From Candidatus Nomurabacteria bacterium (GTDB lineage Bacteria; Patescibacteriota; Minisyncoccia; Phycocordibacterales; UBA9973), in NCBI GenBank assembly GCA_031425235.1, contig JANPIZ010000008.1, positions 27,377 through 91,376 of the forward strand: a stretch of 64,000 bases of DNA, in the 5' to 3' direction. Position 1 is the stretch's first letter. Each line of letters begins with the position of its first letter. The position numbers and the translations under genes are program-made. The notes under the pieces were generated by a model. It was not told where the DNA came from and did not search any database. It was given only the letters and a program-made list of their open reading frames with translations. Below are positions 489-55,546 of this stretch, in pieces.

Positions 489-615
489 AATATTATTTAT
501 TTCAAAACACGAATCCACTTTATGTTTGTGGTCAGAGATAATTTTCTGCTGAAAATTTCCCCGACCCTGCCTCGCACCGTCGTGCTCCGGCTCGCACAAA
601 GCATCCCATGCTTTG

Positions 616-5822: not shown

Positions 5823-6239
5823 ATGGAAATACATGAGCCTATAATCAAGAAACTACACCCTCACTTCTTGGGTTACCTCGTCTTTTATATAAGCGGAGGA
5901 ATTATTTTTATTCTGGGATACTTTGTGTATTGGCCTCTATATTTTTTAGGGGCACTGACTGTTGTATTAGGAGAAGTTGCCAGAAGAGCGGAAACTTTTT
6001 ATATTCTTGAAAGTGGAGTTTCCCGAGAGTATAAACTACTTGCCACTTCACGAGACTTTGCTGAATACGGCAATATACAAAATATAAAAGTACGACAAAG
6101 CTTTCTTGAAAACATGTTTGGAATAGGTAACATACACATGGACACAGCAGGCGGAGATAAAACCGAAGTGAATTTTAGTTATGTTGCAGATCCATATGGG
6201 CTTGATCATATTATTCGAGGAAAAATGAAAACCCACTAA
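5823..6239 (+). CDS. Bacterial PH-domain membrane protein (bPH_2 / DUF304, YdbS/YdbT-like)
   Basis: Two N-terminal transmembrane helices followed by a bPH_2-like region. Confidence 0.55.
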   Translation: MEIHEPIIKKLHPHFLGYLVFYISGGIIFILGYFVYWPLYFLGALTVVLGEVARRAETFYILESGVSREYKLLATSRDFAEYGNIQNIKVRQSFLENMFGIGNIHMDTAGGDKTEVNFSYVADPYGLDHIIRGKMKTH

Positions 6240-29942: not shown

Positions 29943-30536
29943 ATGATGGACGAAGAAACCAACAAAGAACTAGATATTGAAACATCCGAATCTGATGAGG
30001 AAATAGTTGAATTTGAATTCAATGATGACGGAGAGGAGGATTTAAAAAAGACGTTAAAGAAATTGCGGCTTGATTTAAAAGTCGCCCGGGCTGAAAAAGA
30101 AGAATATTTAAATGGCTGGCAGAAAGAGCGAGCAGATTTTGCTAATTATAAAAAAAGTGAAGATGATCGCAACGCGGTGTATAAGGAAAATCTACGTGAA
30201 CATATTTTGAATCGCTTTTTGACTGTGGCTGACAGCTTCAACATGGCTTTTGCAAATCGTGAGGCTTGGGAAAAAGTAGATGAAAATTGGCGTCGAGGTG
30301 TTGAGTACATTTATTCCCAGATGAGTAGCGTGTTTGAAGAATATGGGGTCAAAGAAATAGGTGTAGAAGGTGAAGTGTTTGATCCAAATCTTCATGAATC
30401 TATAGATACCATCGAAGCGAGCGATAAAACACAAGATCACACAATAGCAAAAGTAATCCAAAAAGGGTACAAAATGGGGAATCGAGTTATTCGTCCTGCG
30501 CGAGTAAATGTCTATGGATACAAAGAGAGCAACTAG
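29943..30536 (+). CDS. grpE: Nucleotide exchange factor GrpE
   Basis: 197 aa GrpE-like coiled coil plus beta domain. Confidence 0.85.
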   Translation: MMDEETNKELDIETSESDEEIVEFEFNDDGEEDLKKTLKKLRLDLKVARAEKEEYLNGWQKERADFANYKKSEDDRNAVYKENLREHILNRFLTVADSFNMAFANREAWEKVDENWRRGVEYIYSQMSSVFEEYGVKEIGVEGEVFDPNLHESIDTIEASDKTQDHTIAKVIQKGYKMGNRVIRPARVNVYGYKESN

Positions 30537-32217
30537 AAATTGTAAAAATTGCAAAGCGGATTTCGTCATACTAAGCGAGGATTTTTCATTTTATGAAAAA
30601 ATAAAAGTACCACCACCGACGTGGTGTTTTGTGTGTCGCCAACAACGCCGCTACGCGTGGCGTAACGAGCGTATATTATATCGTCGTAATTGCGATCTTT
30701 GTCAAAAAAGCACGGTGACTATCTATAGTCCTAACAAGCCGTACAAAGTGTATTGTAATGAATGTTGGTGGAGCGATAGCTGGGATACGACACAATATGG
30801 ACGGGATTTTGATTTCTCAAGACCATTTTTTGAACAATTTGCTGAACTTCAGCGTGACGCGCCGCGCATGGCTCTTTTAAATAAAAATAGTGTAAATTCT
30901 GAATACACCAATCATTCTGCTAATAATAAAAATGCGTATCTTTCTTTTTGTGCCTTTGATAGTGAAAACATAATGTACAGTAACTGGGTCATGAAAAATT
31001 CTCGTGACTGCATGGATTGCAGTTTTATTTACGAAAAAGGTGAACGATTGTTTGAGTGCACTGACTCACGATCAAGTTATCAGTCGCAATATAGCACCTT
31101 CCTAAAGGACTGCTCAAATTGTTTGTATTGTTACGATTGCCATGGATCTAGTGATTGTTTTATGTCCACTAATGTAAGAAATAAAAGCTATGTATTTAGA
31201 AATCAGCAACTCACTCGAGAAGAATATCTTGAGAAAATGAAATCTATAGATTTGTCTTCATATCAAGTGAGAGAAAAATTAAATGAAGAATTTCAAGAAT
31301 TAAAAATAAAAGATGCGATCCATCGCTATGTTATAAGTGAGAGAAATGTAAATTCTGTAGGTTCACTGATGTATGATTGTAAAAATGTTGCCACAGCTTT
31401 TGAAGTCAATAAAAGCGAAGATGCTAAATATATTTACGGAGGACTCGAACTCAAAGGTTGTATGGATATTTACCATGCTGGCTACAATACTGAGCTTTGT
31501 TATGAGCTGCACGGCTGTACTCGGACTTCCAATTGCCAGTTTTGTCATCTTTGTTACGACAATCTGAATATTATGTACTGCGACACATGTCAAAACAGTC
31601 AAAACCTTTTTGGTTGCGTCAGTGTTAAAAAAGGAGAGTATATGATTTTAAATAAAAAATATAACAAAGAAGACTATATAGTTCTCAAAGAAAAAATTAT
31701 TGAACACATGAAAAGTACAAATGAATATGGAGAATTTTTTCCACCCGAAATAGCACCTGTATACTATAACGAAACTCAGGGAAATGTATACATGCCTCTT
31801 AGCAAAGAGGAGGTATTAGGGAAAGGCTGGCACTGGGAAGAAACAACGACAGGGACTTTCGGCAAAGAAACAATCCACAGTAATGATATTCCCGATAAAA
31901 TACAAGATATTCTCGACACTTATTTAAAAGAAATTTTCTCTTGTACGGGATGTTCTAAAAATTATAATATTACTCAAAATGAACTTTTGTTTTACCGAAA
32001 AGAAAATATTCCTTTACCGCGTAAATGCCCGAATTGTCGATACAAAAGGAGGTTTGACCTAAGGCCGTCGAGGGAGCTATGGCATCGGGTATGTATGTGT
32101 GACCAAACCCATACAAACCATGGAGGAAAATGTGGGATAGAATTTAAAACTTCGTACGCCCCAGAAAGACTAGAAAAAGTCTACTGTGAAAAATGTTATC
32201 AGCAAGAGGTCTACTAA
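30508..32217 (+). CDS. Cysteine-rich zinc-ribbon-rich protein, paralog 1 of 5 (569 aa); overlaps the grpE stop
   Basis: N-terminal C-x2-C...FYEKIKVPPPTWCFVCRQQRR ribbon, a second CxxC...CxxC ribbon, central CxxCxxCxxC repeats, a C-terminal ribbon, and the invariant tail KVYCEKCYQQEVY. Confidence 0.7.
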   Translation: MSMDTKRATRNCKNCKADFVILSEDFSFYEKIKVPPPTWCFVCRQQRRYAWRNERILYRRNCDLCQKSTVTIYSPNKPYKVYCNECWWSDSWDTTQYGRDFDFSRPFFEQFAELQRDAPRMALLNKNSVNSEYTNHSANNKNAYLSFCAFDSENIMYSNWVMKNSRDCMDCSFIYEKGERLFECTDSRSSYQSQYSTFLKDCSNCLYCYDCHGSSDCFMSTNVRNKSYVFRNQQLTREEYLEKMKSIDLSSYQVREKLNEEFQELKIKDAIHRYVISERNVNSVGSLMYDCKNVATAFEVNKSEDAKYIYGGLELKGCMDIYHAGYNTELCYELHGCTRTSNCQFCHLCYDNLNIMYCDTCQNSQNLFGCVSVKKGEYMILNKKYNKEDYIVLKEKIIEHMKSTNEYGEFFPPEIAPVYYNETQGNVYMPLSKEEVLGKGWHWEETTTGTFGKETIHSNDIPDKIQDILDTYLKEIFSCTGCSKNYNITQNELLFYRKENIPLPRKCPNCRYKRRFDLRPSRELWHRVCMCDQTHTNHGGKCGIEFKTSYAPERLEKVYCEKCYQQEVY

Positions 32218-32277
32218 ATATAATTATTACCTACTTTATCAAACTAAATTACTTTACTTAAGTAAAGTAAACTAAAA

Positions 32278-34020
32278 ATGGAAAGGAAAAGTGAAAATAA
32301 AATATGTCAGAATTGTAAACAAGATTTCACAATAGATCCAGAAGATTTTAATTTTTACGAAAAAATAAAAGTTCCACCACCGACCTTTTGCGCAGAGTGT
32401 CGTATGGTACGAAGACTCATGTGGAGAAATGAGCGGTCTTTAACTAAGCGGGAGTGTGGGCTATGCCATAAATCGCTCATTTCAATGTATTCTGATGCTG
32501 CACCTGTCTATTGCACAGAATGTTTCCATGGGGGAGACTGGGATCAATTCATAAATGCAAAAGAGTATGATTTTACAAAATCTTTTTTCGAGCAATTGAA
32601 AGAATTATTAAAAATAAATCCACGTTTTTATTCCTACAAATTTGGTAATTTTATAAACTCTGAATTCGTAAATTACGCAAAGGACAATAAAAATGTGTAT
32701 CTATCTTTCTCGACCATTTATTGTGAAGATATTTCCTATTCAAACGTTATAGACAAATCTAAAAAGAGTATGGACTGCTTGAATGTAGATAAAATAGATG
32801 GGTGCTATGAAAATATTTATTGTGAAGGGAATTATAATACAACATATGCGGTAAAGTCTCAAAACTGCATAGACTCTAATTTTATTTATGATTGCTCAAA
32901 TTGCTCAGATTGTTTTATGTCAATGAACCAGAGAAATCAAAAGTATGTTTTCCAGAATCAAAAATTAACAAAAGAAGAATATTTTCAAAAAATTAAAGAA
33001 TATAAGTTGAATACATATTCTGGAATAAAAAAAGCTAAAGAAGAATTTGATAACAGTATAAAAAATAAAGCCTTTCATAAATATGCACTTATCTATGCTT
33101 CTGAAAATGCAACAGGAGACAATGTGCATAATGCTCGTAATCTAAAACAAGTCTTTGATACGTATGAATCTGAAAATATTTCGTATGCAAACAGAGTGCT
33201 ATGGACAAAAGACACTATGGATGTTTCTGGGTGTGGCTACGGTGAGCTTATTTATGAATCTATGGCGGCAACTCAAAATACATTTAAAGATTTCTTTTGT
33301 TATATGACAATTGAAGGATGTCGTGAGTGTGAGTATTCTATTGCCTTAACAAATTGCTCAAATTGTTTCGGTTGTGTTGGGCTCAAGAATACACAGTATT
33401 GTATTTTTAATAAACAATATGAAAAAGAACAATATTTTGAAATGGTTGAGAAAATAAAAAAGCATATGAATGATATGCCGTATGTGGATGAAAAGGGTAG
33501 AGTTTTCGCTTACGGGGAATTTTTTCCATATGATTTATGTCCTTTTGGTTATAATGAAGGAAATGCCCACGACTTTTTTCCAATTTCAAAAGAAGATGCA
33601 TTAGAGCGGGGATATAATTGGAAAGAAAAAGAGAAAAAAGATTATAAAGTAACCATACAAAGCTCAGATTTATTGGATAATATAACTGATGTGTCAGACG
33701 ATATTTTAAAGGAAATAATTTCTTGTCCTAATAATGGCGACCAAATGACGCAGTGTACGAGTGCTTTTAAAATCGTCCCCGCCGAACTGCAATTTTATAA
33801 ACAGAAGAATTTGCCAATACCTCGATACTGTCCTAACTGTAGACATTATGAAAGGCTAAAATATAGAAATCCGATTAAACTTTGGAAAAGGGGATGTATG
33901 TGTGACAAATCCCATGCTCATCACGTTGGGCAATGTAGCATAGAGTTCGAAACCACATATGCTCCCGAGCGAACCGAGAAAGTGTATTGTGAAAAATGTT
34001 ATCAGCAGGAGGTATACTAG
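32278..34020 (+). CDS. Cysteine-rich zinc-ribbon-rich protein, paralog 2 (580 aa)
   Basis: Same architecture; C-terminus ...KVYCEKCYQQEVY. Confidence 0.7.
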   Translation: MERKSENKICQNCKQDFTIDPEDFNFYEKIKVPPPTFCAECRMVRRLMWRNERSLTKRECGLCHKSLISMYSDAAPVYCTECFHGGDWDQFINAKEYDFTKSFFEQLKELLKINPRFYSYKFGNFINSEFVNYAKDNKNVYLSFSTIYCEDISYSNVIDKSKKSMDCLNVDKIDGCYENIYCEGNYNTTYAVKSQNCIDSNFIYDCSNCSDCFMSMNQRNQKYVFQNQKLTKEEYFQKIKEYKLNTYSGIKKAKEEFDNSIKNKAFHKYALIYASENATGDNVHNARNLKQVFDTYESENISYANRVLWTKDTMDVSGCGYGELIYESMAATQNTFKDFFCYMTIEGCRECEYSIALTNCSNCFGCVGLKNTQYCIFNKQYEKEQYFEMVEKIKKHMNDMPYVDEKGRVFAYGEFFPYDLCPFGYNEGNAHDFFPISKEDALERGYNWKEKEKKDYKVTIQSSDLLDNITDVSDDILKEIISCPNNGDQMTQCTSAFKIVPAELQFYKQKNLPIPRYCPNCRHYERLKYRNPIKLWKRGCMCDKSHAHHVGQCSIEFETTYAPERTEKVYCEKCYQQEVY

Positions 34021-34835
34021 CTATCAATATTCATTTTTTCGAATAATTTATCAGATTTTTCCTTTGTTATTTTTATTTTCTTTGAAAGTTTCCAAACAAC
34101 ATCAAATTGTGAAGATATCATATCAGCGAACTCTTTGCTTTCAATTATAAATCCAAAATTATCTTTTTGCGAGGAAACAAAAGAAACTTTATTCTCATAA
34201 ATCCAATAACCCATCGAGAAGTTTATATCTTTTGGGGCAATACGTATTTCTCGGATGAATTTCTCACCTGTGCCCATAAAAGGGTAGTCATCCATACTTA
34301 CTACTTGATTTTCTGGCCATATAGCTTCTATGTAGATGCCTCGCCTGACTCTCTCTTTATTAAATTCCTCAAAAAAGTCTTCACCAAGGGATCTCAACAT
34401 ATCTTTTATAGGCCAATAGGACTTACCTTTAATGTTTCTATACAAAAGGAGATCTCTCGGAATATTTTTCATTTCTTCCTTGCCTTCAAATATTTGAAAT
34501 CTAGGCATTACAGATGGCTTCACCCCTTTTCTTATTTCTAAAAAAACATTTTCTATAGCCTGTTTAGTATTTGTTATTTCTTTAATTTTTTCATCCATCA
34601 AGAGGTTAATTTTATCTTGTGATGTCACAGAAAACACCTTCACCCCATCTTTTCTAGATTCTATAACCAATCCCTTTTCCTGGAGATTTTTTAAAAAGCC
34701 GTACAAAGACGGACGGGAGAGTCCAGTTTTCTTTGCAATGTTGCCGGCCGTTTGTCCTGCATTTTCAATTAGAAAAAGGAAGACCTTGGTCTCATCTTCT
34801 TTCAGACCTAAAAATGCAAGTTTTTTATCTATCAT
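34017..34835 (-). CDS. TrmB-family transcriptional regulator (winged HTH plus TrmB C-terminal domain)
   Basis: N-terminal wHTH (GNIAKKTGLSRPSLYGFLKNLQEKGLV); 272 aa. Confidence 0.6.
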   Translation of the reverse strand: MIDKKLAFLGLKEDETKVFLFLIENAGQTAGNIAKKTGLSRPSLYGFLKNLQEKGLVIESRKDGVKVFSVTSQDKINLLMDEKIKEITNTKQAIENVFLEIRKGVKPSVMPRFQIFEGKEEMKNIPRDLLLYRNIKGKSYWPIKDMLRSLGEDFFEEFNKERVRRGIYIEAIWPENQVVSMDDYPFMGTGEKFIREIRIAPKDINFSMGYWIYENKVSFVSSQKDNFGFIIESKEFADMISSQFDVVWKLSKKIKITKEKSDKLFEKMNIDS

Positions 34836-34937
34836 ACATTAAACTGTATACTATTTTCATTTGTTGTCAAGATTGTGCAACAGTAGTGACACTATTAGGC
34901 ATTTGTGTAATAATTACCTTGTGCGATAATTAATAAA

Positions 34938-36599
34938 ATGAATTCAAAAAACAAAAACTGTGAGAATTGTAAAAATGACTTCCAAATAGAAGTGGAGGAT
35001 TTTTCCTTTTACGAAAAGATGGGAATTCAGGTTCCCAAAATCTGCCCACAATGCAGGCTGCAAAACAGAATGCTTTTTAGAAATTTTAAAACATTATACA
35101 AAAGACCTTCTAGCAAGTCGGGCGATATGATAGTTTCAGTTTACAGCCCTGAAGTAAAATTCCCAGTGTATAGCGTTTTGGAATGGTGGAGTGATGATTG
35201 GGATCCAATGAGCTATGGTATGGATTTTGATAGTGAAAAGCCCTTCTTCTCCCAGCTCTTGGAATTATCAAATAAAGTGCCTCGATGGTCAATGATGAAT
35301 TCTCAATGTGAGAATTGTGAATACTCAAATCAAATAAATAAAAGTAAGAACTGTTATATGATATCAGGTGGGTTAGATGACGAGGACTGCGATTATGGCC
35401 ATATTGTCTGGAATTCAAAAGACTCAATTGATAACTTATACTTGTTTAAATCTGAATCATGCTATGAATGCATTGACTGTGTTGCATCAAACAAGCTTTC
35501 TTACTCCCAAGAGTGTGAAAGTTGCTTAGACAGTATTGGGCTTTTTGATTGTCGGAATTGTTTAAACTGTATTGGATGTGTGGGACTTGTTGGCAAATCA
35601 TACTGTATTTTTAATAAGCAAGTAACAAAAGAAGAGTACAAAGAATTTTTATTAAAATACCCCTTAAATCAAAAAAGCTCCATTGAATATATTTTGAGAG
35701 AAAGAGATACTTTACGAGAAAGTTTGCCCCAGAGATCATTCTTTGGCTCTAGGAACAATGGAGTTTCTGGCAACCATATTTACAATGCCCACAATGTTCA
35801 CTATTCTTTTGATGTTAAAAGTGGTGAGAATTCAAAATTTTGTTTTACTGTAAGAAAAGCCATTGATTCATATGATGCTTCGTTTACTGGTGAATTATCT
35901 GAGTGTTATCAAGTCCTCACTATGCTTAACTCAAATAAAGTCATCGGCTCTGAAACTATATTAGACTCACATGATATATACTATTCAAACAACTGCTATA
36001 ACTCTGACAATCTTTTTGGTTGTTATGGTTTACGTAAAAAATCATATTGTATTTTGAACAAACAATATTCAAAAGAGGAATATATGATTATAAAAGATAA
36101 GATAATTGAGCAATTAAAAAGCACAGGGGACTTCGGAGCATTTTTCCCAAGACAACTCAGCCCTTTTGGCTATAATGAGGCCATTGTAAACGAATATATG
36201 CCAATGACAAAAGATGCAGCCCTAAGTAATGGGTTCACATGGAAAGACAATATACCTGGAACTAAGGGGCAAGGGACAATTGAAAATTCAAAATTACCTA
36301 CCAACCCAGAAGAGTATAGCGATAGACTAATACAAGAAATACTAACTTGTGAAAATTGTGATAAAAATTACAAACTTATAAACAGAGAGATAAATTTTTA
36401 TAAAAAAAATAAACTGTCTATTCCGAATAAATGTTTCAATTGCCGACACGCTGCCCGAATGAAAAAAAGAAACCCAAGAGTACTCTTTGCGGGAACTTGC
36501 GCCAAATGTAATAAAAAAATTCAAACATCATATACGACTGAAGACCAACTTAAATATAAAGTCTATTGCGAAAAGTGTTATCAGCAAGAAGTCTATTAA
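34938..36599 (+). CDS. Cysteine-rich zinc-ribbon-rich protein, paralog 3 (553 aa); second N-terminal ribbon degenerate
   Basis: Same family; ends ...KVYCEKCYQQEVY. Confidence 0.7.
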   Translation: MNSKNKNCENCKNDFQIEVEDFSFYEKMGIQVPKICPQCRLQNRMLFRNFKTLYKRPSSKSGDMIVSVYSPEVKFPVYSVLEWWSDDWDPMSYGMDFDSEKPFFSQLLELSNKVPRWSMMNSQCENCEYSNQINKSKNCYMISGGLDDEDCDYGHIVWNSKDSIDNLYLFKSESCYECIDCVASNKLSYSQECESCLDSIGLFDCRNCLNCIGCVGLVGKSYCIFNKQVTKEEYKEFLLKYPLNQKSSIEYILRERDTLRESLPQRSFFGSRNNGVSGNHIYNAHNVHYSFDVKSGENSKFCFTVRKAIDSYDASFTGELSECYQVLTMLNSNKVIGSETILDSHDIYYSNNCYNSDNLFGCYGLRKKSYCILNKQYSKEEYMIIKDKIIEQLKSTGDFGAFFPRQLSPFGYNEAIVNEYMPMTKDAALSNGFTWKDNIPGTKGQGTIENSKLPTNPEEYSDRLIQEILTCENCDKNYKLINREINFYKKNKLSIPNKCFNCRHAARMKKRNPRVLFAGTCAKCNKKIQTSYTTEDQLKYKVYCEKCYQQEVY

Positions 36600-36624
36600 A
36601 TGTCGTACTTTTCTTTATTCAACT

Positions 36625-36705: not shown

Positions 36706-36745
36706 CCCCGCCTGCATCAGCTATGCTGAAAGCATTGCGGGCAGG
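36706..36745 (+). repeat. 40-nt GC-rich repeat element, copy 1 (intergenic, between convergent genes)
   Basis: ccccgcctgcatcagctatgctgaaagcattgcgggcagg; matches 50203-50242 (reverse complement) and 55086-55125 at ~90-93% identity. Confidence 0.7.
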
Positions 36746-36750
36746 TTCGT

Positions 36751-37269
36751 CTACTTACTAAAACTTTCCATAAATACTTTTCTTGAGACATCGTCTATAT
36801 TATCTGTAACCAGTATCATAATTTCTGTTGTTAGACCTAAATCTTTTTTTATGTTCATGAAAAGGTGTTCGTATGGATATGGTGAAATCCATGCCGAATT
36901 TTTAAGGCAGACAAACTGCGCTTTTTTGAGTAGGTACCTCAAGCTCTCGCGCTCACTTTTTCGTGATTCGGGAAGATCGAGCAAAATAATTCTCCAATAC
37001 CCATCCCAGTTTGTGCTCGCGAGCGTAGTTTCGTTTTCTAGTGTTAAGCTATGAACCTTTTTCTTGCCTTCTTTGGTGAGGCGGGCGTAGCTTTGATGTG
37101 CAGAGTCGTGAAGCTCCACCAGCCCTCCGCTTACGAGGTTTTTGAGGCTTCTAGATAGGGCGTAGGTGCCTTTTGAATCTTCATTTTCCTTTAGAATTTC
37201 AGTCGGTAATACTGATTTTTGCCCTAGAATCTTCAATATTTTCTTGGAATATTCTTGTTTATTTGACAT
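36751..37269 (-). CDS. Winged-helix transcriptional regulator (PaaX-like architecture)
   Basis: N-terminal wHTH; C-terminal WDGYWRIILLDLPE motif resembling the PaaX C-terminal domain. Confidence 0.4.
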   Translation of the reverse strand: MSNKQEYSKKILKILGQKSVLPTEILKENEDSKGTYALSRSLKNLVSGGLVELHDSAHQSYARLTKEGKKKVHSLTLENETTLASTNWDGYWRIILLDLPESRKSERESLRYLLKKAQFVCLKNSAWISPYPYEHLFMNIKKDLGLTTEIMILVTDNIDDVSRKVFMESFSK

Positions 37270-40348: not shown

Positions 40349-42463
40349 ATGGAACTGCCAGAAATACCTAAAAATAGAGATATGACATATCTTGGTTTGA
40401 GTACCTACCGAGACAAAAATCAGCTTTTTGGTATCAAGCGTAAAGACAGGCGTCAGCATGTGTATCTTCTCGGAAAGTCAGGTACGGGTAAATCCGTGCT
40501 TATGTTCAACATGATCATCCAAAACATCCAAAATGGGGATGGCGTGTGTCTCGTTGATCCGCACGGTGAAAACGTCGAAGGAGTACTTTCCTCTATCCCT
40601 CCACATCGCGTCAAAGATGTTATATATTTTAACCCGGCTGACGCTGAACATCACATCGGTTTCAATGTTCTCGAACTTGTTGATCCTCAATATAAACATC
40701 TGGTAGCGTCCGGGCTCATGGGTATATTTACGAAAATTTGGGCCAATGCGTGGAGTGCTCGAATGGAATACATCTTGAACAATACGATACTCGCGCTTCT
40801 CGATACGCCTGGCTCTACGATGCTCGGTATTCCGCGTATGCTCGTGGACAAGGACTATCGTCAAAAAATTATTGCGAACCTGAAAGACCCGGTGATCAAG
40901 GCTTTTTGGATTCACGAGTACGAAGCATGGCAAGATAAATTTCGAAATGAGGCTATCGCTCCGATTCAAAATAAAGTCGGACAGTTTCTGTCGACAGCTA
41001 TCATCCGAAACGTTGTCGGTCAGTCGAAAAGTACGATCAACATTTTCGACATGATGAATGAAGGAAAAATTTTCCTCGTGAACGTATCCAAGGGCCGCAT
41101 CGGTGAAGACAACTCAGCACTTCTTGGAGGTATGATCATTACCAAAATCCAGCTTGCAGCCATGGAGCGCGTGCGTATCCCCGAGGAGAATCGAAAAGAT
41201 TTTTACTTGTATGTCGACGAATTCCAAAACTTCGTAACAGATGCGTTTGCCAGCATTTTGTCTGAAGCTCGAAAATACAGATTGAATCTCACTGTGGCTC
41301 ACCAATACACTGCACAGCTCGTGTCAGATAAAAGCACAGCAGTGCGTGACTCTATTTTCGGTAACGTGGGTACTATGATCATTTTCCGCGTCGGTTCTGA
41401 CGATGCTGAATTCTTGGAAAAAGAATTTGATCCCGAATTTACTCCGCAAGACATAGTTAATCTTCCGAACTATAAAATATATTTAAAGCTCATGATTGAC
41501 GGGATAACGTCGAGACCTTTTTCCGCAAAAACTTTACCGCCTATGGTGAAGTCTGGTGATCCAGAAATCGAGAAGGCCGTAATCGAGTCATCCCGTGCTT
41601 TGTATTGCAAAGCAAAGGCTGATATTGAAAGGGAAATAAATGACTGGAGTGGCATGTCGCTTGGCGACGACGGGAATAACGTCCCAGGAAACATGGAAAA
41701 ATTTCCTGCTGTGTGTTCATTTTGTAAAAAAGAAACAACAGTACCCTTTAAACCCGAAAAAGGTAGACCTGTGTATTGCAAGGACTGCATTGCAAAAATA
41801 AAGGCAGGAGAAATAAAACCAAACAAAGACTCAATCGAACAAGTGCGAAGAGATGAAGTAAAATTTTATAAACCCCTTGCTGACCTCGGGATAGAATTCA
41901 CCGCTAAAGATACTGAAGATACAAATGACCACGCTCCAAAAGTAGCGACAGGTTCTTTTGGTAAGTTGATACCACGAAATGAAGAATCGGACGGCAGAAT
42001 CAAGCAGCACAAACCTTTTATTAAAAGACCAAAGATAGATGGATTCAAACCAAAGCCTCCTCGGGTACCCGGCGAGAATCTAGCTTTACGACAAGCTCTC
42101 AATAAAATTGCTCCTCAAAAACCACAAGAAGAGCCAATGCCCCTTGAAGTTAAAAAAGAAATTCTGCAAAAAGTCGTCGAACCTATATCACTCGAAGCTC
42201 TTAAAAATAAAATGAAAGATATCAGGACTATTCCGAAGGACCGGTCAGCGAGTGCAACTGATATGAATAAATTAAAGGATTTGATCAGTGCTTCCGTTGC
42301 GAATTCGCCAAAAAAAGAGCTTTTAGAAACACCAGAAAATAAATCAGAAGAACGAGTCGATCAAGATGATGGAAACAAAAATACGAACTCAGCAACAAGC
42401 TCAGGATCTACACCACAGCCGAAAGAAGTACCAGAAGATGTGTTAAGAAAAATTTTGGAATAA
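40349..42463 (+). CDS. HerA/DUF87-TraD/VirD4-like P-loop ATPase, paralog 1 (704 aa); has a ~270-aa K/P/E-rich tail containing a CxxC-x19-CxxC zinc ribbon
   Basis: Walker A GKSGTGKS followed by VDPHGE (DUF87/HerA hallmark); Walker B-region YLYVDEFQNF; TraG-D_C-like region; C-terminal CSFCKKETTVPFKPEKGRPVYCKDC. Confidence 0.7.
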   Translation: MELPEIPKNRDMTYLGLSTYRDKNQLFGIKRKDRRQHVYLLGKSGTGKSVLMFNMIIQNIQNGDGVCLVDPHGENVEGVLSSIPPHRVKDVIYFNPADAEHHIGFNVLELVDPQYKHLVASGLMGIFTKIWANAWSARMEYILNNTILALLDTPGSTMLGIPRMLVDKDYRQKIIANLKDPVIKAFWIHEYEAWQDKFRNEAIAPIQNKVGQFLSTAIIRNVVGQSKSTINIFDMMNEGKIFLVNVSKGRIGEDNSALLGGMIITKIQLAAMERVRIPEENRKDFYLYVDEFQNFVTDAFASILSEARKYRLNLTVAHQYTAQLVSDKSTAVRDSIFGNVGTMIIFRVGSDDAEFLEKEFDPEFTPQDIVNLPNYKIYLKLMIDGITSRPFSAKTLPPMVKSGDPEIEKAVIESSRALYCKAKADIEREINDWSGMSLGDDGNNVPGNMEKFPAVCSFCKKETTVPFKPEKGRPVYCKDCIAKIKAGEIKPNKDSIEQVRRDEVKFYKPLADLGIEFTAKDTEDTNDHAPKVATGSFGKLIPRNEESDGRIKQHKPFIKRPKIDGFKPKPPRVPGENLALRQALNKIAPQKPQEEPMPLEVKKEILQKVVEPISLEALKNKMKDIRTIPKDRSASATDMNKLKDLISASVANSPKKELLETPENKSEERVDQDDGNKNTNSATSSGSTPQPKEVPEDVLRKILE

Positions 42464-42464
42464 C

Positions 42465-44228
42465 ATGCATAGTGAAAATAAAATCTGCCAAAATTGTAAA
42501 ACTGAATTTGTTGTAGAACAAGCAGACTTTGATTTTTATAAAAAAATGAAGGTACCAGCTCCGACATTTTGTCCGATGTGTCGTGCACAAAGGCGGTGGA
42601 ATTTCCGTAACGAACGAGGTTTTTATAAAAGAAAATGTGATTTTTCCGGAAATCAAATTTTTTCTATGTATGCATCAGATTCACCAATCAAAGTGTATGA
42701 ACGAGAGGTTTGGTTTTCTGATGTGTGGGATCCAATGGATTATGGACGGGATATTGATTGGTCACGATCATTTTTAGCTCAAATTTACGAACTGATGCTT
42801 GAAGTGCCTTTTAAGTCGAATAATGTCATTCGGGGGGTGAATAGTCCGTACGCCAACAATGCTACTGACCCTAAAAATTGTTACCTGGTTTTTAATTCTA
42901 CTAGTGCAGAGGATTGTATATATGCAAATGGTGTAAATCATTCGCGGGATTGTGTTGATATATCACATGTATCAAAATCAGAAACATGCTACGGGAGCTT
43001 TTGGCTGGATACGTGTTATAAAACGCATTTCTCTTCCGAGTGTGCTGATTCAAGCGATTTGTGGTTTTGCCGTGACTGTTATGGGTGCATGAGTTGTTTT
43101 GGATCAGTAAATCTTCGTAATAAAAGTTATTACTTTTTTAATAAAAAATATACTAAAGAAGAATATGAACAAAAAGTAAAAGAGTATAAACTTCATACAC
43201 GAGATGGATTTGAAAAAGCACGGGACGATGCTACGGGATTTTGGAAAAAGTTCCCAAATAAAAATCACCAAGGAGTAAAAAATATTGACTCGACTGGTTC
43301 ATATGTTACCAACTCTAAAAACGTAAAAGATTCTTTTTTAATACGTGAAAGTGAAAATCTACGTTATTGTCAATATCTACAAGAAAGTCCCGGTACAAAA
43401 GATTGTTATGATTATTCAAATTGGGGCGCAGGGGCTGAGCTCATCTATGAAGCTATCTCCTGTGGCTCAGGAGCACAAAATATAAAATTTGCGTGGCTTG
43501 GGCAGGAGTCTGTGCACGACCTTGAGTATACTATGGCATGCACCAGTAGTTCCAATAATTTATTTGGATGTGTAGGATTACGTAAAAAAGAATATTGCAT
43601 TCTGAATAAACAATATTCAAAGGAGGAATATATTAAACTCGTTGAAAAAATAAAGATCCATATGAATGATATGCCGTATATAGATAAAGGTGGTCGTATA
43701 TATAAGTACGGTGAATTTTTTCCAAATGAATTTAGTCCATGGGCTTATAATGAAACTCTTGCTCAGGAATATTTTCCTCTCACAAAAAATGAAGCTTTAG
43801 CTAAAGGTTATCGTTGGCGTGACCCGGATACAAAAGATTATAAGCCTACGTTGCACCTAGGTGAATTGCCAAACGATATTACTCAAATGGACGATTCAAT
43901 ACTTGAAGAAATTATTGAATGTGCGCATAAGGGTCAGTGTAACCAGGGATGTACCAAGGCATTTCGTATTATTCCAAATGAGCTCAACTTTTATCGAAAA
44001 ATTAGTGTATCTATACCCACGCTCTGTCCAGCATGCCGTACCCTAGAGCGGCTTAAAATGCGTTTAGGTGTTAAATTATACGAAGCAATATGTATGTGTA
44101 GCGGTGACAACGAAACTGAACATTTTCATGGCAAAGCTCATTGTGAAAATAAGTTTAAAACAGGATATGTTCCTAGTGAAGGTGATATTGTATATTGTGA
44201 ACAATGTTATCAGCAGGAAGTATACTAA
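42465..44228 (+). CDS. Cysteine-rich zinc-ribbon-rich protein, paralog 4 (587 aa); starts 2 nt after the ATPase stop
   Basis: Same family; C-terminus ...VYCEQCYQQEVY. Confidence 0.7.
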   Translation: MHSENKICQNCKTEFVVEQADFDFYKKMKVPAPTFCPMCRAQRRWNFRNERGFYKRKCDFSGNQIFSMYASDSPIKVYEREVWFSDVWDPMDYGRDIDWSRSFLAQIYELMLEVPFKSNNVIRGVNSPYANNATDPKNCYLVFNSTSAEDCIYANGVNHSRDCVDISHVSKSETCYGSFWLDTCYKTHFSSECADSSDLWFCRDCYGCMSCFGSVNLRNKSYYFFNKKYTKEEYEQKVKEYKLHTRDGFEKARDDATGFWKKFPNKNHQGVKNIDSTGSYVTNSKNVKDSFLIRESENLRYCQYLQESPGTKDCYDYSNWGAGAELIYEAISCGSGAQNIKFAWLGQESVHDLEYTMACTSSSNNLFGCVGLRKKEYCILNKQYSKEEYIKLVEKIKIHMNDMPYIDKGGRIYKYGEFFPNEFSPWAYNETLAQEYFPLTKNEALAKGYRWRDPDTKDYKPTLHLGELPNDITQMDDSILEEIIECAHKGQCNQGCTKAFRIIPNELNFYRKISVSIPTLCPACRTLERLKMRLGVKLYEAICMCSGDNETEHFHGKAHCENKFKTGYVPSEGDIVYCEQCYQQEVY

Positions 44229-44230
44229 TT

Positions 44231-46000
44231 ATGGAAACTAAAAAGTGCCAAAATTGTAAAACTGAATTTGTTATTAAGAAAGAAGATTTTAATTTTTACG
44301 AAAAGATAAAAGTGCCTGCTCCTACATTTTGTCCGGAGTGTCGACTTATTCGACGGATGATGTGGCGTAACGAGCGTTCATTGTTTAAGCGGACCTGCGC
44401 AAAAACTGGCAGAGATATCATTACGATGTTTCATCCGGATGCTCCTGTGGTGGTGTACGATCACGATGTGTGGTGGGGCGATACTTGGGAACCAACTGAT
44501 TATGGTGCTGTGTATGATTTTTCAACACCATTTTTTCAGCAATTTAAAGAATTACTTAAAAAAGTACCACTTGCTACCCTCGGGAATCAAAATTGCCCGG
44601 GGAGTCCTTACGGCAACCACAATGCGGACTGTAAGCTTTCCCACCTCCTATACGCTTCGTTTGACAATGAACGAGTGAGTTATTCTCACGGAGCTCTGGC
44701 TTCGAAAGATTGTTTTGATATGTATAAAACATTACATTCCGAGCTTTCATATGGCGATACGTTATGTGCGGGCCTATATAAAACACATTTATCTTATAAT
44801 TCTGACGAATCTCTTAACTCAATGTTTCTTAAGCATTGTATGAACTTGCAAGATTGTATTGGCTGCGTGAATTTACGAAATAAAAGTCATTGCATTTTTA
44901 ATGTGCAATATTCTAGAGAAGAATATGAACAAAAAAAACAAGAGTTTGATTTTGGAAGTTATAAAAATTTAGTTGATTTTGAAAACAAGTTCAATGAATT
45001 TACACTCACATTCCCGAATAGATATGCAAACAACATAAGATCAGCGGACGTTTCTGGTGACAATATCATGAATTCCAAAAATGCTAAACATTGTTTTGAT
45101 TTATACGGCGAGGTGCAAGATTCCAAATATCTAATTCATATTGTAAACATGAAAGATAGTTATGATGTGTATGGTGGTGGAGCTGGCGCCTCTCTTGTTT
45201 ACGAAGGAGTGGATGCCGGGTTACAAATATCAAATCAGCTTTTTTCTGTATTATCTCATGGGTGCCTCGATACAAATTATACGTACATGTGTTATGGCTC
45301 GAAAGATCTTTTCGGATGTATTGGGTTACGTAATAAGCAGTATTGTATTTTAAATAAACAATATACTAAAGAAGAATATTTTGAACTTGTTCCAAAAATT
45401 ATTGAGCACATGAACACTATGCCGTATATAGATGCAAAAGCTCTCGTGTATACATATGGTGAATTTTTTCTAAGTGAAATTTCTCCGTTTTCCTACAACG
45501 AAACAATCGCTCAAGAGTATTTTACAAAGACAAAAAAACAAATAGCTGAACAAGGTTTTAAATATAGAGAACCAATACATAAAGATTATGTTATAACTAT
45601 AAAAAATAAAGATTTGCCTGACCATATACAAGAGATCTCAGACTCTATTTTAGACGAAATTATAGAGTGCCCAAACAATGGACAAGAAACGACTCAGTGC
45701 ACTAAAGCTTTTAGAATTATAAAAAGTGAATTAGATTTTCTTAAAAATAATAATATTGCCTTACCTAGGTATTGCCCAAACTGCAGACACTATAACCGAC
45801 TAAGACAACGAAATCCATTTAAATTGTGGCATCGCATGTGTCAGTGTGGTGGGGTAAGTTCTCAAAATGGAAAATATAAAAATACAATAGTACATACACA
45901 TGGCGACACAGAATGTTTAGTTGAATTTGAAACTTCCTATGCACCAGATCGACCCCAGATAGTGTATTGCGAGAAATGTTATCAGCAAGAAGTATATTAA
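44231..46000 (+). CDS. Cysteine-rich zinc-ribbon-rich protein, paralog 5 (~589 aa). Start placed at METKKCQNCKTEF by homology with paralogs, not at the ORF-track ATG 44204.
   Basis: Same family; ends ...VYCEKCYQQEVY. Confidence 0.7.
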   Translation: METKKCQNCKTEFVIKKEDFNFYEKIKVPAPTFCPECRLIRRMMWRNERSLFKRTCAKTGRDIITMFHPDAPVVVYDHDVWWGDTWEPTDYGAVYDFSTPFFQQFKELLKKVPLATLGNQNCPGSPYGNHNADCKLSHLLYASFDNERVSYSHGALASKDCFDMYKTLHSELSYGDTLCAGLYKTHLSYNSDESLNSMFLKHCMNLQDCIGCVNLRNKSHCIFNVQYSREEYEQKKQEFDFGSYKNLVDFENKFNEFTLTFPNRYANNIRSADVSGDNIMNSKNAKHCFDLYGEVQDSKYLIHIVNMKDSYDVYGGGAGASLVYEGVDAGLQISNQLFSVLSHGCLDTNYTYMCYGSKDLFGCIGLRNKQYCILNKQYTKEEYFELVPKIIEHMNTMPYIDAKALVYTYGEFFLSEISPFSYNETIAQEYFTKTKKQIAEQGFKYREPIHKDYVITIKNKDLPDHIQEISDSILDEIIECPNNGQETTQCTKAFRIIKSELDFLKNNNIALPRYCPNCRHYNRLRQRNPFKLWHRMCQCGGVSSQNGKYKNTIVHTHGDTECLVEFETSYAPDRPQIVYCEKCYQQEVY

Positions 46001-46027
46001 ATTTTATGTTAAAATAGAACAAAATCA

Positions 46028-50181: not shown

Positions 50182-50202
50182 ATTATAATTTATAAATTTT
50201 CT

Positions 50203-50242
50203 CCTGACCGCAGTGCTTTCAGCTCAGCTGATGCAGGCGGGG
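50203..50242 (-). repeat. 40-nt GC-rich repeat element, copy 2 (reverse orientation); supplies the last 8 codons and stop of cysS (GPRLHQLS*)
   Basis: Reverse complement ccccgcctgcatcagctgagctgaaagcactgcggtcagg. Confidence 0.7.
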
Positions 50243-51568
50243 TCCATTCGGTAGATCTTTTACTTCGTAACCCAGATTATTTATTTCTTTACGGAGTTCG
50301 TCAGATTTATTAAAATCTTTTTCTTTTCGCGCTTGTTCACGTAGAGTAGCTAGTTTTAAAACTTCTTCTGGGATTTCTTCTTCTTTTATATCTGCAAATC
50401 CAAGGCCGAATACTTTATCGAAGTTCAGTACTGTCGCTTTCTTATCAGCATCTGAAAGGTTTTCGTCTTTTAATACATCCCACAGTACAGTGAGCGCTCT
50501 AGGAGTATCTAAATCATCATCTAAAAAGGCTTTAAATTTTTGCTGATATTCGACACTAATGTTATCACCTTCCACATCTCCTAGCTCTCTGTAGAGGCCG
50601 TAGAGCCGCTTGAGGGCGGTTTCAGTTGCATGTAGCGCCTCTTCGTTCCAGTTCATCGTAGTACGATAGTTTGCCATCAGAACCCAGAGCCTGAAAGCCA
50701 TAGGTAAAATGCCACTTTCTACCATATTGCGTATAGTAGTAAAATTACCCTTAGACTTTGACATCTTTTTTGAATCAATATTTAAAAATCCTGTATGCAA
50801 CCATTGCTTCACCAAGGGAGATAGGCCAGAAGCAGATTCCATCTGAGCAATCTCGCATTCATGGTGAGGGAAGATAAGATCTATTGCTCCTCCATGTATA
50901 TCATATTGAGGTCCAAAAAAAGTTTCAGTTATTGCGGTGTCTTCAATATGCCAACCAGGCCGGCCAGAACCCAAAGAAGTTTCCCAAACTGGTTCGCCTT
51001 CTTTACTATTTTTCCACAGACAAAAATCATTCCAACCTTTTTTCTCTTTTGATTCATCAATCCTAGATACTGCATCGTCTTCTTTTAACTCCGTTCGACC
51101 AGATAGTTTTCCATATTCTTTAAATTTAGCAGTCTCAAAATAAATTCCATCGCTTATTGTATAAGCATATCCTTTCTGAGTGAGTGCTTCTACTTGTTTT
51201 ACTATCTGCGGTATATGATCAGTTGCGCGAGCATATTTAGTAACGGAAGTATTCCCGAGAAGTGCCATGTCTTCTATATAGATTTTTTCAAATTTCAGAG
51301 CCAAATCTTTCCAAGATATTCCAAGTTCTCGGGCGCGGTTTATAATCTTGTCGTCAATATCAGTGATATTTTGCAAGTAAAATACCTCATATCCTGAGTA
51401 TCTTAAAAACCGGACCAGCACATCAAATTGAGTATAGGTTTTACCATGACCCAAATGAGGATAATCATACACAGTTGGACCACAAACAAACAAGTTTATT
51501 TTATTATCTTTGGTTGGCGTGAATTCTTCTTTTTTCTTACCAAGTGTGTTGTAAAATTTAAGTCCCAT
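50219..51568 (-). CDS. cysS: Cysteine--tRNA ligase
   Basis: HIGH region (PHLGHGKTY) and KMSKS; 449 aa. Confidence 0.9.
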   Translation of the reverse strand: MGLKFYNTLGKKKEEFTPTKDNKINLFVCGPTVYDYPHLGHGKTYTQFDVLVRFLRYSGYEVFYLQNITDIDDKIINRARELGISWKDLALKFEKIYIEDMALLGNTSVTKYARATDHIPQIVKQVEALTQKGYAYTISDGIYFETAKFKEYGKLSGRTELKEDDAVSRIDESKEKKGWNDFCLWKNSKEGEPVWETSLGSGRPGWHIEDTAITETFFGPQYDIHGGAIDLIFPHHECEIAQMESASGLSPLVKQWLHTGFLNIDSKKMSKSKGNFTTIRNMVESGILPMAFRLWVLMANYRTTMNWNEEALHATETALKRLYGLYRELGDVEGDNISVEYQQKFKAFLDDDLDTPRALTVLWDVLKDENLSDADKKATVLNFDKVFGLGFADIKEEEIPEEVLKLATLREQARKEKDFNKSDELRKEINNLGYEVKDLPNGPRLHQLS

Positions 51569-54869: not shown

Positions 54870-54897
54870 AAAAATCACTCGAGAGAGTGATTTTTTT
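54870..54897. terminator. Bidirectional hairpin terminator (AAAAATCACTC-gaga-GAGTGATTTTTTT) between convergent rplU and recR
   Basis: Hairpin flanked by an A-run and a T-run. Confidence 0.65.
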
Positions 54898-55546
54898 ATT
54901 GTCTATTTTTTAAAGCATTTTTGAGGGTATCGTTGTCCGAATATTCAAGCTCAGTTCCAGTCGAGAGGCCTTTACCGAGGGAAGAGATTTTTATGTTCTG
55001 TTTGTTGGCTATATCGTTTAATTGTTCGCGGACATACATATCCGTGTGGTCACCTTGAGGGCTTAGTGAAAAGGCAAGTATTATTTCCCCGCCTGCACTA
55101 GCTATGCTAGAAGCATTGCGGGTAGGTTTTAAAAAATCTCTTTTTATTCTTGTCTTTAGTTCTTCGATACGTACTCGACTCTTAGTATTTTTTTCTACGA
55201 TCGGCACAAGCCCGCCCAAGATGAAGTATCTTCCATTATAAATTCCACTTTTATGGACGCTTTCTAGGTCAGAATCTTTCTCTACGATCATAAGAGTTGA
55301 GGAGTCTATGTTTGGGCTAGCGCAGATATTACATATTTTTTCTTTATTTTTTCCAATCACAAAAAATCGGAAACAATCTTCGCATTGCGCAATGTCTTTT
55401 TTCAGCTCGAGTAGTAAACTCGACAAATTCTCAGAATAAAAATTATTTTTAAACATAAGGAAATACACAAAACGTCTCGCTTGACGCTCGCCTATGCCTG
55501 GAAACTCTTTAAAAACCTCTGTCAGTTTGTCGACGATATCCATCAA
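54896..55546 (-). CDS. recR: Recombination protein RecR; contains the 40-nt repeat element as an in-frame 14-aa insertion (KPTRNASSIASAGG)
   Basis: HhH (FPGIGERQARR), C4 zinc finger (CEDCFRFF...CNICAS), Toprim (EIILAFSLSPQGDHTDMYV). Confidence 0.85.
   Translation of the reverse strand: MMDIVDKLTEVFKEFPGIGERQARRFVYFLMFKNNFYSENLSSLLLELKKDIAQCEDCFRFFVIGKNKEKICNICASPNIDSSTLMIVEKDSDLESVHKSGIYNGRYFILGGLVPIVEKNTKSRVRIEELKTRIKRDFLKPTRNASSIASAGGEIILAFSLSPQGDHTDMYVREQLNDIANKQNIKISSLGKGLSTGTELEYSDNDTLKNALKNRQ
55086..55125 (+). repeat. 40-nt GC-rich repeat element, copy 3; lies inside recR, antisense to it and in frame
   Basis: ccccgcctgcactagctatgctagaagcattgcgggtagg. Confidence 0.7.

Follow-up and report, generated by a model that had tools for sequence, protein, structure and literature searches.

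A 39-nt GC-rich hairpin repeat, probably a non-autonomous mini-element, in genes and spacers of Patescibacteria

Introduction

Repetitive extragenic palindromic (REP) sequences and REPINs are mobilised by RAYT transposases, which are Y1 HUH enzymes (PMC2817692, PMC3116915, PMC3479197, PMC3733652), and the REP end carries a conserved GTAG or CGTC tetranucleotide (PMC3733652). Here we describe a 39-nt GC-rich repeat that occurs three times in 64,000 nt of Candidatus Nomurabacteria bacterium DNA (contig JANPIZ010000008.1, positions 27,377 to 91,376 of the forward strand; this whole stretch is called the window), once within recR, once at the end of cysS, and once between genes. It resembles REPs and REPINs in being a GC-rich imperfect palindrome in the 20-40-nt range that folds as a single strand, is multicopy and dispersed, leaves no target duplication, and shows compensatory stem changes; RAYT-like genes are also present in some of the genomes that bear it. 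It differs from them in lacking a GTAG or CGTC head (its ends are CCCGCCTGC... and ...GCGGGCAGG), in having about three quarters of its copies (88/119) inside open reading frames (ORFs), whereas REPs are extragenic, and in a sequence common to several classes, whereas REPs are lineage-specific; no RAYT gene flanked by the element was found among the fetched loci.

Rickettsia palindromic elements (RPEs) are about 100-150 bp long and confined to Rickettsia, and consensus sequences exist for RPE-1 to RPE-8. They are mentioned in PMC1779305. A preliminary description of the window, made by reading the sequence, likened the repeat to them, and the functional likeness holds: both are palindromic, in-frame inserts in housekeeping genes of a reduced genome, with a tolerated added peptide (for our element recR, with 13 extra residues, RpoC, ribonucleotide reductase (RNR), MurD, and S1). 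Membership does not, since the element is set apart by its length of 39 nt, a quarter to a third of an RPE; it also has one dominant frame and orientation, and it occurs in several lineages of a phylum-level group.

Yeast mitochondrial GC clusters and the 'byp' elements of Magnusiomyces are GC-rich palindromes of about 30-50 nt in an AT-rich compact genome, with optional in-frame coding inserts and recurrent hot spots. The element shares with them (context in PMC4464245, PMC8811140, PMC6649704) its size, its GC-rich palindrome in an AT-rich compact genome, its in-frame inserts, and its hot spots. Both, however, are organellar, and byps are skipped by the ribosome, whereas the open frames and multiple-of-three lengths of our element indicate ordinary read-through. 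No sequence relation to GC clusters or byps is to be expected.

Miniature elements derived from IS200/IS605 move as single-stranded DNA by 'peel and paste' (PMC6006769). With these the element shares precise insertion and excision free of target-site duplication (TSD) and hairpins recognised on one strand, from which strand asymmetry is expected, but they have two distinct subterminal hairpins and insert 3' of a fixed tetra- or pentanucleotide, in an orientation linked to the lagging-strand template, whereas the element has a single hairpin and a weak flank preference. Like miniature inverted-repeat transposable elements, it has invariant terminal inverted repeats (CCCGCCTGC against the reverse complement of GCGGGCAGG, 7/9); unlike them, it has no TSD at its cysS and recR sites. 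Such elements also share their ends with a parent insertion sequence; in ~850 kb no two termini of the family were seen to flank a transposase. DNA uptake sequences (DUS/USS) accumulate by substitution within existing sequence and not as length-adding blocks, whereas copies of the element are exact 39-nt indels relative to orthologues. The element behaves like REPs, RPEs, and GC clusters, yet lacks defining features of each.

Results

Three copies of the element lie in the window:

36707-36745 (39-nt core; 36706-36745 as 40-mer), forward strand: element copy 1, covariance-model score 68.7 bits
50203-50241 (39-nt core; 50203-50242 as 40-mer), reverse strand: element copy 2, covariance-model score 59 bits
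55088-55126 (39-nt core; 55087-55126 as 40-mer), forward strand: element copy 3, covariance-model score 63.5 bits

We read these repeats as a 39-nt non-autonomous GC-rich hairpin mini-element, belonging to a family with termini 5'-CCCGCCTGC...GCGGGCAGG-3' that is proliferating in Patescibacteria, and give this reading a probability of about 70%. The element was inserted as an exact 39-nt block, free of TSD, into unrelated genes and spacers, and the same nucleotide positions are filled in distant lineages while closer relatives are empty. The core of copy 1, CCCGCCTGCATCAGCTATGCTGAAAGCATTGCGGGCAGG, is the commonest variant worldwide (36/119 copies). The three copies share 35/39, 34/39, and 30/39 core positions (90%, 87%, and 77%), a wider range than the roughly 90-93% given before. 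Their GC content is 59-64% when measured on the 39-nt core, and on the 40-mer it is 62.5-65% in copies 1 and 2; the background is 37% in the window and not 32%. All three copies had been located, copy 3 with an error of one nucleotide (55086-55125), and the unit had been taken as 40 nt, whereas empty sites in orthologues give 39 nt, or 13 codons. No fourth copy with at least 24/40 matches was found on scanning the window. Because 100 shuffles returned 0 matches to the repeat, and because about 3e-4 matches were expected in the genome collection described below against at least 111 loci matched, a chance origin is excluded.

The cysS site involves these features:

50219-51568, reverse strand: cysS, host gene with its C-terminus rewritten by the element
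50183-50202, reverse strand: displaced original cysS tail, which with the C at 50242 reads CAG AAA ATT TAT AAA TTA TAA (QKIYKL and stop)

Copy 2 is sense to cysS, and CysS ends in ...NG/PRLHQLS (slashes mark junctions here and below). The copy was correctly seen to form the C-terminus and the stop; the element supplies the TGA and the last seven codons, not eight. The displaced tail is intact and in frame once the 39 nt are removed, and CysS orthologues without the element end in ...EGQK(I/V)(Y/S)K(I/L) and a stop. A CysS 84% identical to that of the window (P0122, in L116) differs by a clean 39-nt indel, its empty site reading GAAGGAC/AAAAAATTTATAAAATATAA where the window has GAATGGAC/39 nt/AGAAAATTTATAAATTATAA; the junction is GGAC/39 nt/AGAAAA against the empty GGAC/AAAAAA, with no TSD. 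The identical nucleotide is filled in the window, L063, and L099, whose CysS proteins are only 53-59% identical, and relatives of the window cysS at 77-84% identity are empty. Downstream of all three filled genes the tail QK(I/V)xK(I/L)-stop is intact. We read these as three separate, fairly recent insertions at a hot spot, the alternatives being that precise losses were numerous or that the element is taken out when the gene is expressed.

Under removal, a sense-orientation element would be spliced out like an intron or bypassed in translation, and CysS would keep its normal C-terminus. The intact tails, with coding-type substitutions despite 53-59% identity, favour this, but independent recent insertions at a hot spot explain them equally well, given that the nearest relatives of the window are empty. 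A length of 39 nt is below that of any self-splicing intron known, and the element has no Rfam match: with Rfam 15 at gathering and E-value thresholds, only tRNAs reached the gathering score in the window, and the best hits on the element had E = 0.8-6. The tRNA contexts described below are partial or pseudo copies beside intact tRNAs and not interrupted functional tRNAs, and the strict open-frame and multiple-of-three pattern indicates that intragenic copies are translated. We consider removal during expression very improbable. A translational hop from GGA to GGA in cysS, read from the sequence, was rejected, the landing giving the wrong frame.

The recR features are as follows:

54896-55546, reverse strand: recR, host gene; its insert occupies the linker that precedes Toprim strand 1 (EIILA)
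L112, 3415-3453: recR insert of P0002, GC-rich, palindromic, and in frame

Copy 3 is antisense within recR and is read in frame, as had been stated: its reverse complement is translated as PTRNASSIASAGG, adding 13 residues. The claim that other RecR proteins lack this segment was also borne out. Most orthologues have about 203 aa without it (P0003, for example, has 203 aa), and in a HMMER alignment to the solved RecR 3vdp_A a gap of 13 residues falls exactly at the insert, before the Toprim strand EVILA. The DNA junction in the window is AAA/39 nt/GAA, with no target duplication. In an AlphaFold 2 model the insert is coil with a predicted local distance difference test (pLDDT) score below 50, the model being poor overall (pLDDT 58). 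RecR of P0044 has an additional LPAQAGE in its zinc-finger region. At the same linker position, recR of P0002 and its relatives carries a different 39-nt palindrome, CCCGCCTCGACTCGCGGAGACTCGTCGACGCGAGGCGGG, and the flanks of the window and P0002 inserts are identical over 18 nt and 8 nt. In RecR of other genomes of the candidate phyla radiation (CPR), the palindrome-encoded linker inserts read PASTRGDSSTRGG (from 39 nt), PARPHDSSGAGG, (E)ARPNMLGLAS, and FGEAQRPSFG, and together the linker inserts suggest that a whole zoo of GC-rich palindromic elements may exist.

Copy 1 is intergenic between convergent genes, which agrees with the preliminary description; it follows the stop codon of a PaaX-like gene at 5 nt and a convergent Cys-rich ORF at 107 nt:

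36751-37269, reverse strand: PaaX/Cas2-like-domain gene (PF20803, E = 2e-19)

The same insertion is present in L043 with near-identical flanks. L043 is labelled Saccharibacteria, yet it matches the Nomurabacteria-like window nearly exactly around copy 1.

A pattern with 26 fixed bases was scanned against a 596-Gb collection of species-representative genomes, in which about 3e-4 chance matches are expected by our arithmetic. It matched at least 111 loci in several Patescibacteria lineages, the labels among the matches listed being Nomura-, Giovannoni-, Morani-, Berkel- (a complete genome), Collier-, and Gottesmanbacteria, Paceibacterota, and Minisyncoccia; one metagenome-assembled genome supplied at least 10 contigs with the element. 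What had seemed an oddity of a single CPR-like genome is instead a near-invariant family spread across Patescibacteria. The preliminary interpretation is otherwise supported: the element is not restricted to the three sites, nor are its residues shared by close relatives, for it occurs at these at least 111 other loci in unrelated genes, and close RecR and CysS orthologues are without the residues. A covariance model returned 139 hits (E <= 1) in 745 kb, including some reverse-strand and marginal ones and about 20 diverged members. The five terminal positions left free by the pattern are 97-99% conserved, and the ends CCCGCCTGC... and ...GCGGGCAGG are kept in 113-117/117 copies.

No hit to the element was obtained in IMG/VR, GenBank phages, or PLSDB plasmids, and a literature search by sequence, peptide, and topic found no description of it. 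The concatenated element peptide was uninformative as a query, with 86 candidates and 3 weak hits in a set of 5.8 billion proteins. A few carrier contigs are binned under other phyla, and some labels look unreliable. Bins named Gammaproteobacteria or Pseudomonadales carry the element on low-GC contigs (one isolate is ...PATE-17), and here labels or binning look wrong; the loci so labelled are L007, L042, L046, L048, L052, L053, L055, L074, L078, L094, L096, L097, L102, and L105. Runs of N (scaffold gaps) abut copies or tandems at L001 (~1191-1199) and L064 (6600-6800), which suggests that the repeat breaks short-read assemblies.

Copies within genes follow the reading frame. Open stretches of at least 100 codons contain 88/119 copies, and the hosts, confirmed by Pfam, are housekeeping proteins with no relation to one another: a glycosyltransferase, bL25, MreC, Fpg, RpoC, MurD, RsmE, S1, and RNR. 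The copy is antisense to the gene, in the sole stop-free reverse-strand frame, in 66 cases, and lies in one of two open sense frames in 11. Antisense frame 0 thus holds 66/77 of the in-ORF open-frame copies where one third is expected (P = 3e-21). This frame encodes P-A-R-N-A-(F/S/Y)-S-(I/T)-A-x-A-G-G (PARNAxSIADAGG), a peptide bounded by Pro and Gly-Gly that would be loop-friendly, and the one-frame pattern may be explained by only one reverse-strand frame being open and giving such a peptide. Stop-creating variants terminate the protein (e.g., in L012 at the C-terminus of bL25, and in all three cysS genes); met near the end of a gene, as in cysS, a stop-containing frame would merely rewrite the C-terminus. 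Intragenic copies of the 13-codon unit probably persist only where the frame through them is open. Ordinary read-through predicts peptides such as ...LKPTRNASSIASAGGEIILA... or ...NGPRLHQLS.

Covariation was analysed on 117 copies (36 distinct sequences), with positions numbered on the 40-mer. An outer 10-bp stem, 2-11/31-40, in which a single C·A and a single U·G are constant, encloses helix A, 12-16/20-24 (TCAGC/GCTGA), and the predicted folding energy is about -18 kcal/mol. Helix positions vary by compensatory substitution and the termini are invariant. Two-sided changes occur at pairs 12:24 (T-A, A-T, T-G, C-G, G-C), 13:23 (C-G, A-T, T-A), and 18:30 (A-T, G-C, G-T, T-A; non-canonical in 0/117); the covariation score was reached by 0/500 shuffles, and slid controls were about 4-fold or more lower. 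Pair 18:30 falls in another helix, 15-22/26-33, which can be read directly from the sequence, extends the ATGCT/AGCAT hairpin, and is incompatible with the outer stem and helix A. The hairpin originally proposed stands as a competing helix with one covarying pair, the main covariation-supported fold being a different one. Two competing helices, both covarying, are unexpected to a specialist. G·T-type intermediates number 36 on the CCCGCC strand vs. 3 for the other strand, which suggests that the CCCGCC strand may be the folding strand; this is soft, since the most frequent of these changes also turns Phe into Ser in the frame that is translated.

Protein-level selection for a shared peptide motif (PARNAxSIADAGG), with no nucleotide element, would likewise lead to most copies being translated in one frame and to a well-conserved peptide. 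The motif, however, does not account for copies that are intergenic, in other frames, on the other strand, or in tRNA fragments, and synonymous positions are equally conserved. Covariation tracks base pairing, N-to-S accompanying I-to-T since positions 30 and 18 pair. In our view the non-coding and other-frame copies have already refuted this explanation.

The 39-nt block CCCGCC...GGGCAGG is preceded by C in 46% of cases, A in 22%, G in 18%, and T in 14%. Within element-bearing loci the same termini enclose other interiors, of 33, 36 (five times), 48, 60, 69, 75, 102, and 105 nt (the last two in L049), and 12/14 of these non-39-nt relatives are multiples of three (P = 8e-5). A metagenome scan for 40-70-nt bodies, in which high-GC hits are largely chance, returned many members of 40, 41, and 43 nt; these overturned the notion that all family members are multiples of three, which holds for ORF-embedded ones only. 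On low-GC metagenome contigs, 12/21 multiple-of-three units were embedded in long ORFs vs. 4/30 others (Fisher P = 0.002). Because members of 40, 41, and 43 nt are common and the bias is seen only in ORFs, frame preservation is a filter on intragenic survival and not a property of the family, of which the 39-mer is the member suited to gene-dense genomes.

A 36-nt relative is nested within the loop of a 39-mer in L083, a 30-nt insert lies near the 3' end of the element in L041, head-to-tail tandems occur in L064, and decaying copies are present, e.g., in L106 and L016. An ORF (...FKYFCFDRVIIRGYI...) without a Pfam match or an assigned family occurs in L015 (3426-4097) and L049 (488-1100), on contigs binned Desulfobacterota. 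It carries 2-4 element units, among them the 102- and 105-nt ones, which resemble a 39-mer split in its loop by unrelated sequence.

Recurrent use of one site is not limited to cysS. One RpoC site is filled in two genomes, a MurD site likewise, and the tRNA D-arm is filled three times at GCTC/AG:

L019, ~2600-2760: partial or pseudo tRNA-Thr beside intact tRNA-Thr, element in D-arm
L039, ~5850-6000: partial or pseudo tRNA-Thr beside intact tRNA-Thr, element in D-arm
L010, 7340-7450: partial or pseudo tRNA-Thr beside intact tRNA-Thr, element in D-arm

Repeated independent use of identical nucleotide positions is unexpected to a specialist. In L010 the tRNA fragment is followed by a GIY-YIG-like ORF. 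We discarded a tRNA intron, since no tRNA is restored when the element is removed in silico, and intact tRNA-Thr genes lie next to these partial or pseudo carriers. Hairpin loops as preferred targets, an idea taken from the D-arm sites and the nesting in L083, were discarded as well, the joined flanks being no more structured than random 40-mers.

Copies resident at orthologous sites were compared with their flanks:

cysS (three genomes): element identity 85-95%, flanks 64-70%
MurD: element identity 90%, flanks 71-73%, all four differences compensatory
RpoC: element identity 79%, flanks 67-78%, a decaying pair

The cysS and MurD residents point to turnover, gene conversion, or selection in situ. 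They also bear on a different explanation, in which the repeat serves Patescibacteria as a conserved cis-signal of the cell (for example one for DNA uptake or recombination, or a site bound by a conserved nucleic-acid-binding protein), is kept by selection or molecular drive and spread between genomes by recombination, and is not selfish. Residents that are better conserved than the flanking coding DNA and differ by compensatory changes would be natural for such a signal, as would a near-invariant sequence over class-level lineages, the lack of hits in the viral, phage, and plasmid collections searched, and the identical 18-nt flank shared by the window and P0002 recR alleles in a variable linker. 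A cis-signal accounts poorly for the dozens of unrelated genes in which the repeat forms exact 39-nt blocks at sites that are not orthologous, for nested and tandem copies, and for the decaying copies in L106 and L016, and no positional pattern, such as gene ends only, was seen. We regard it as improbable.

Discussion

On the mini-element reading, the hairpin would be mobilised in trans. Our tentative and still doubtful guess is that an HUH/Y1 (RAYT/IS200-like) enzyme handles the hairpin of the CCCGCC strand in single-stranded form; we prefer it because with this chemistry insertion and excision are precise and TSD-free, and the substrate is one folded strand. Such handling would account for the strand asymmetry and the tandem copies. 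RAYT-type Y1 transposases do occur among these genomes: L038 has one (PF01797) and L042 a homologue. The RAYT-like gene of L038 (1752-2453, PF01797) is bracketed by a hairpin of its own, ATGATCGAGG-nnnn-CCTCGATCAT, which also adjoins the three element copies on the same contig.

Several results weigh against a selfish mini-element mobilised in this way. Searches of six-frame ORFs from the 111 loci with phmmer and jackhmmer yielded two RAYT-like genes, neither adjacent to an element, and no cognate mobiliser; all-against-all clustering of ORFs near copies gave no enriched transposase-like family and recovered only synteny with the window. There is no strong target motif (C at position -1 in 46%, T at +1 in 52%). 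Flank-to-interior covariation is weak and confounded, and guide-target base pairing was dropped as a candidate on this account, the mutual information between flank and interior being confounded by genome composition. Co-orientation with the neighbour gene was 47% for sense copies vs. 65% for antisense copies, a weak test of linkage to replication with a weakly suggestive outcome. The antisense bias (66 vs. 11) is only partly explained, and conservation at the 26 positions fixed by the exact pattern is partly by construction. Pure neutral selfish decay does not predict that residents in cysS and MurD exceed their flanks in conservation, and near-identity over class-level distances is atypical for REP/RAYT and would also fit a conserved cellular signal.

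This near-identity implies one of two things: horizontal spread is frequent and the machinery of recognition conserved, or resident copies are continually homogenised or selected. Combined with a single frame and orientation in essential genes, it is unexpected to a specialist. An unlikely but further-reaching possibility is a pan-Patescibacteria nucleic-acid signal, served by conserved, site-selective machinery for its insertion and precise removal at preferred positions, both helices being selected and residents kept intact. If true, linkers and termini of essential proteins would be reversibly remodelled, or DNA marked for uptake or recombination, across the radiation.

Patescibacteria genomes are about 1 Mb and nearly without spacer DNA. 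If the repeats are a mini-element as we propose, a family that owes its survival to a length of exactly 13 codons and a single frame without stops shows selfish DNA adapting to extreme gene density. The element accounts for many unexplained 13-residue inserts in CPR proteins, probably causes assembly breaks such as the gaps at the L001 and L064 copies, and, being invariant, can serve as a marker for CPR contigs in bins. Its identity across classes points either to gene flow that is intense between CPR lineages or to a conserved system of recognition, and for finding the latter the recurrent same-site insertions offer a handle.

Additional observations

Other short GC-rich palindromes, e.g., CCTGCCTGCCGGCAGGCAGG and TCCGCC-nnnn-GGCGGA, recur in CPR loci including L006, L014, L026, L035, and L083. 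A Cys-rich protein of 550-600 aa, in which CxxC pairs are numerous, has five or six paralogues in tandem in the window (30500-36600 and 42400-46010), all ending in ...VYCEKCYQQEVY and a stop; the family has no Pfam match and recurs in 10 fetched CPR loci. A GC-rich stretch of 53 nt (window 555-607), with no tRNA or Rfam call, lies between tRNA-Leu (406-488) and tRNA-Lys (615-688).

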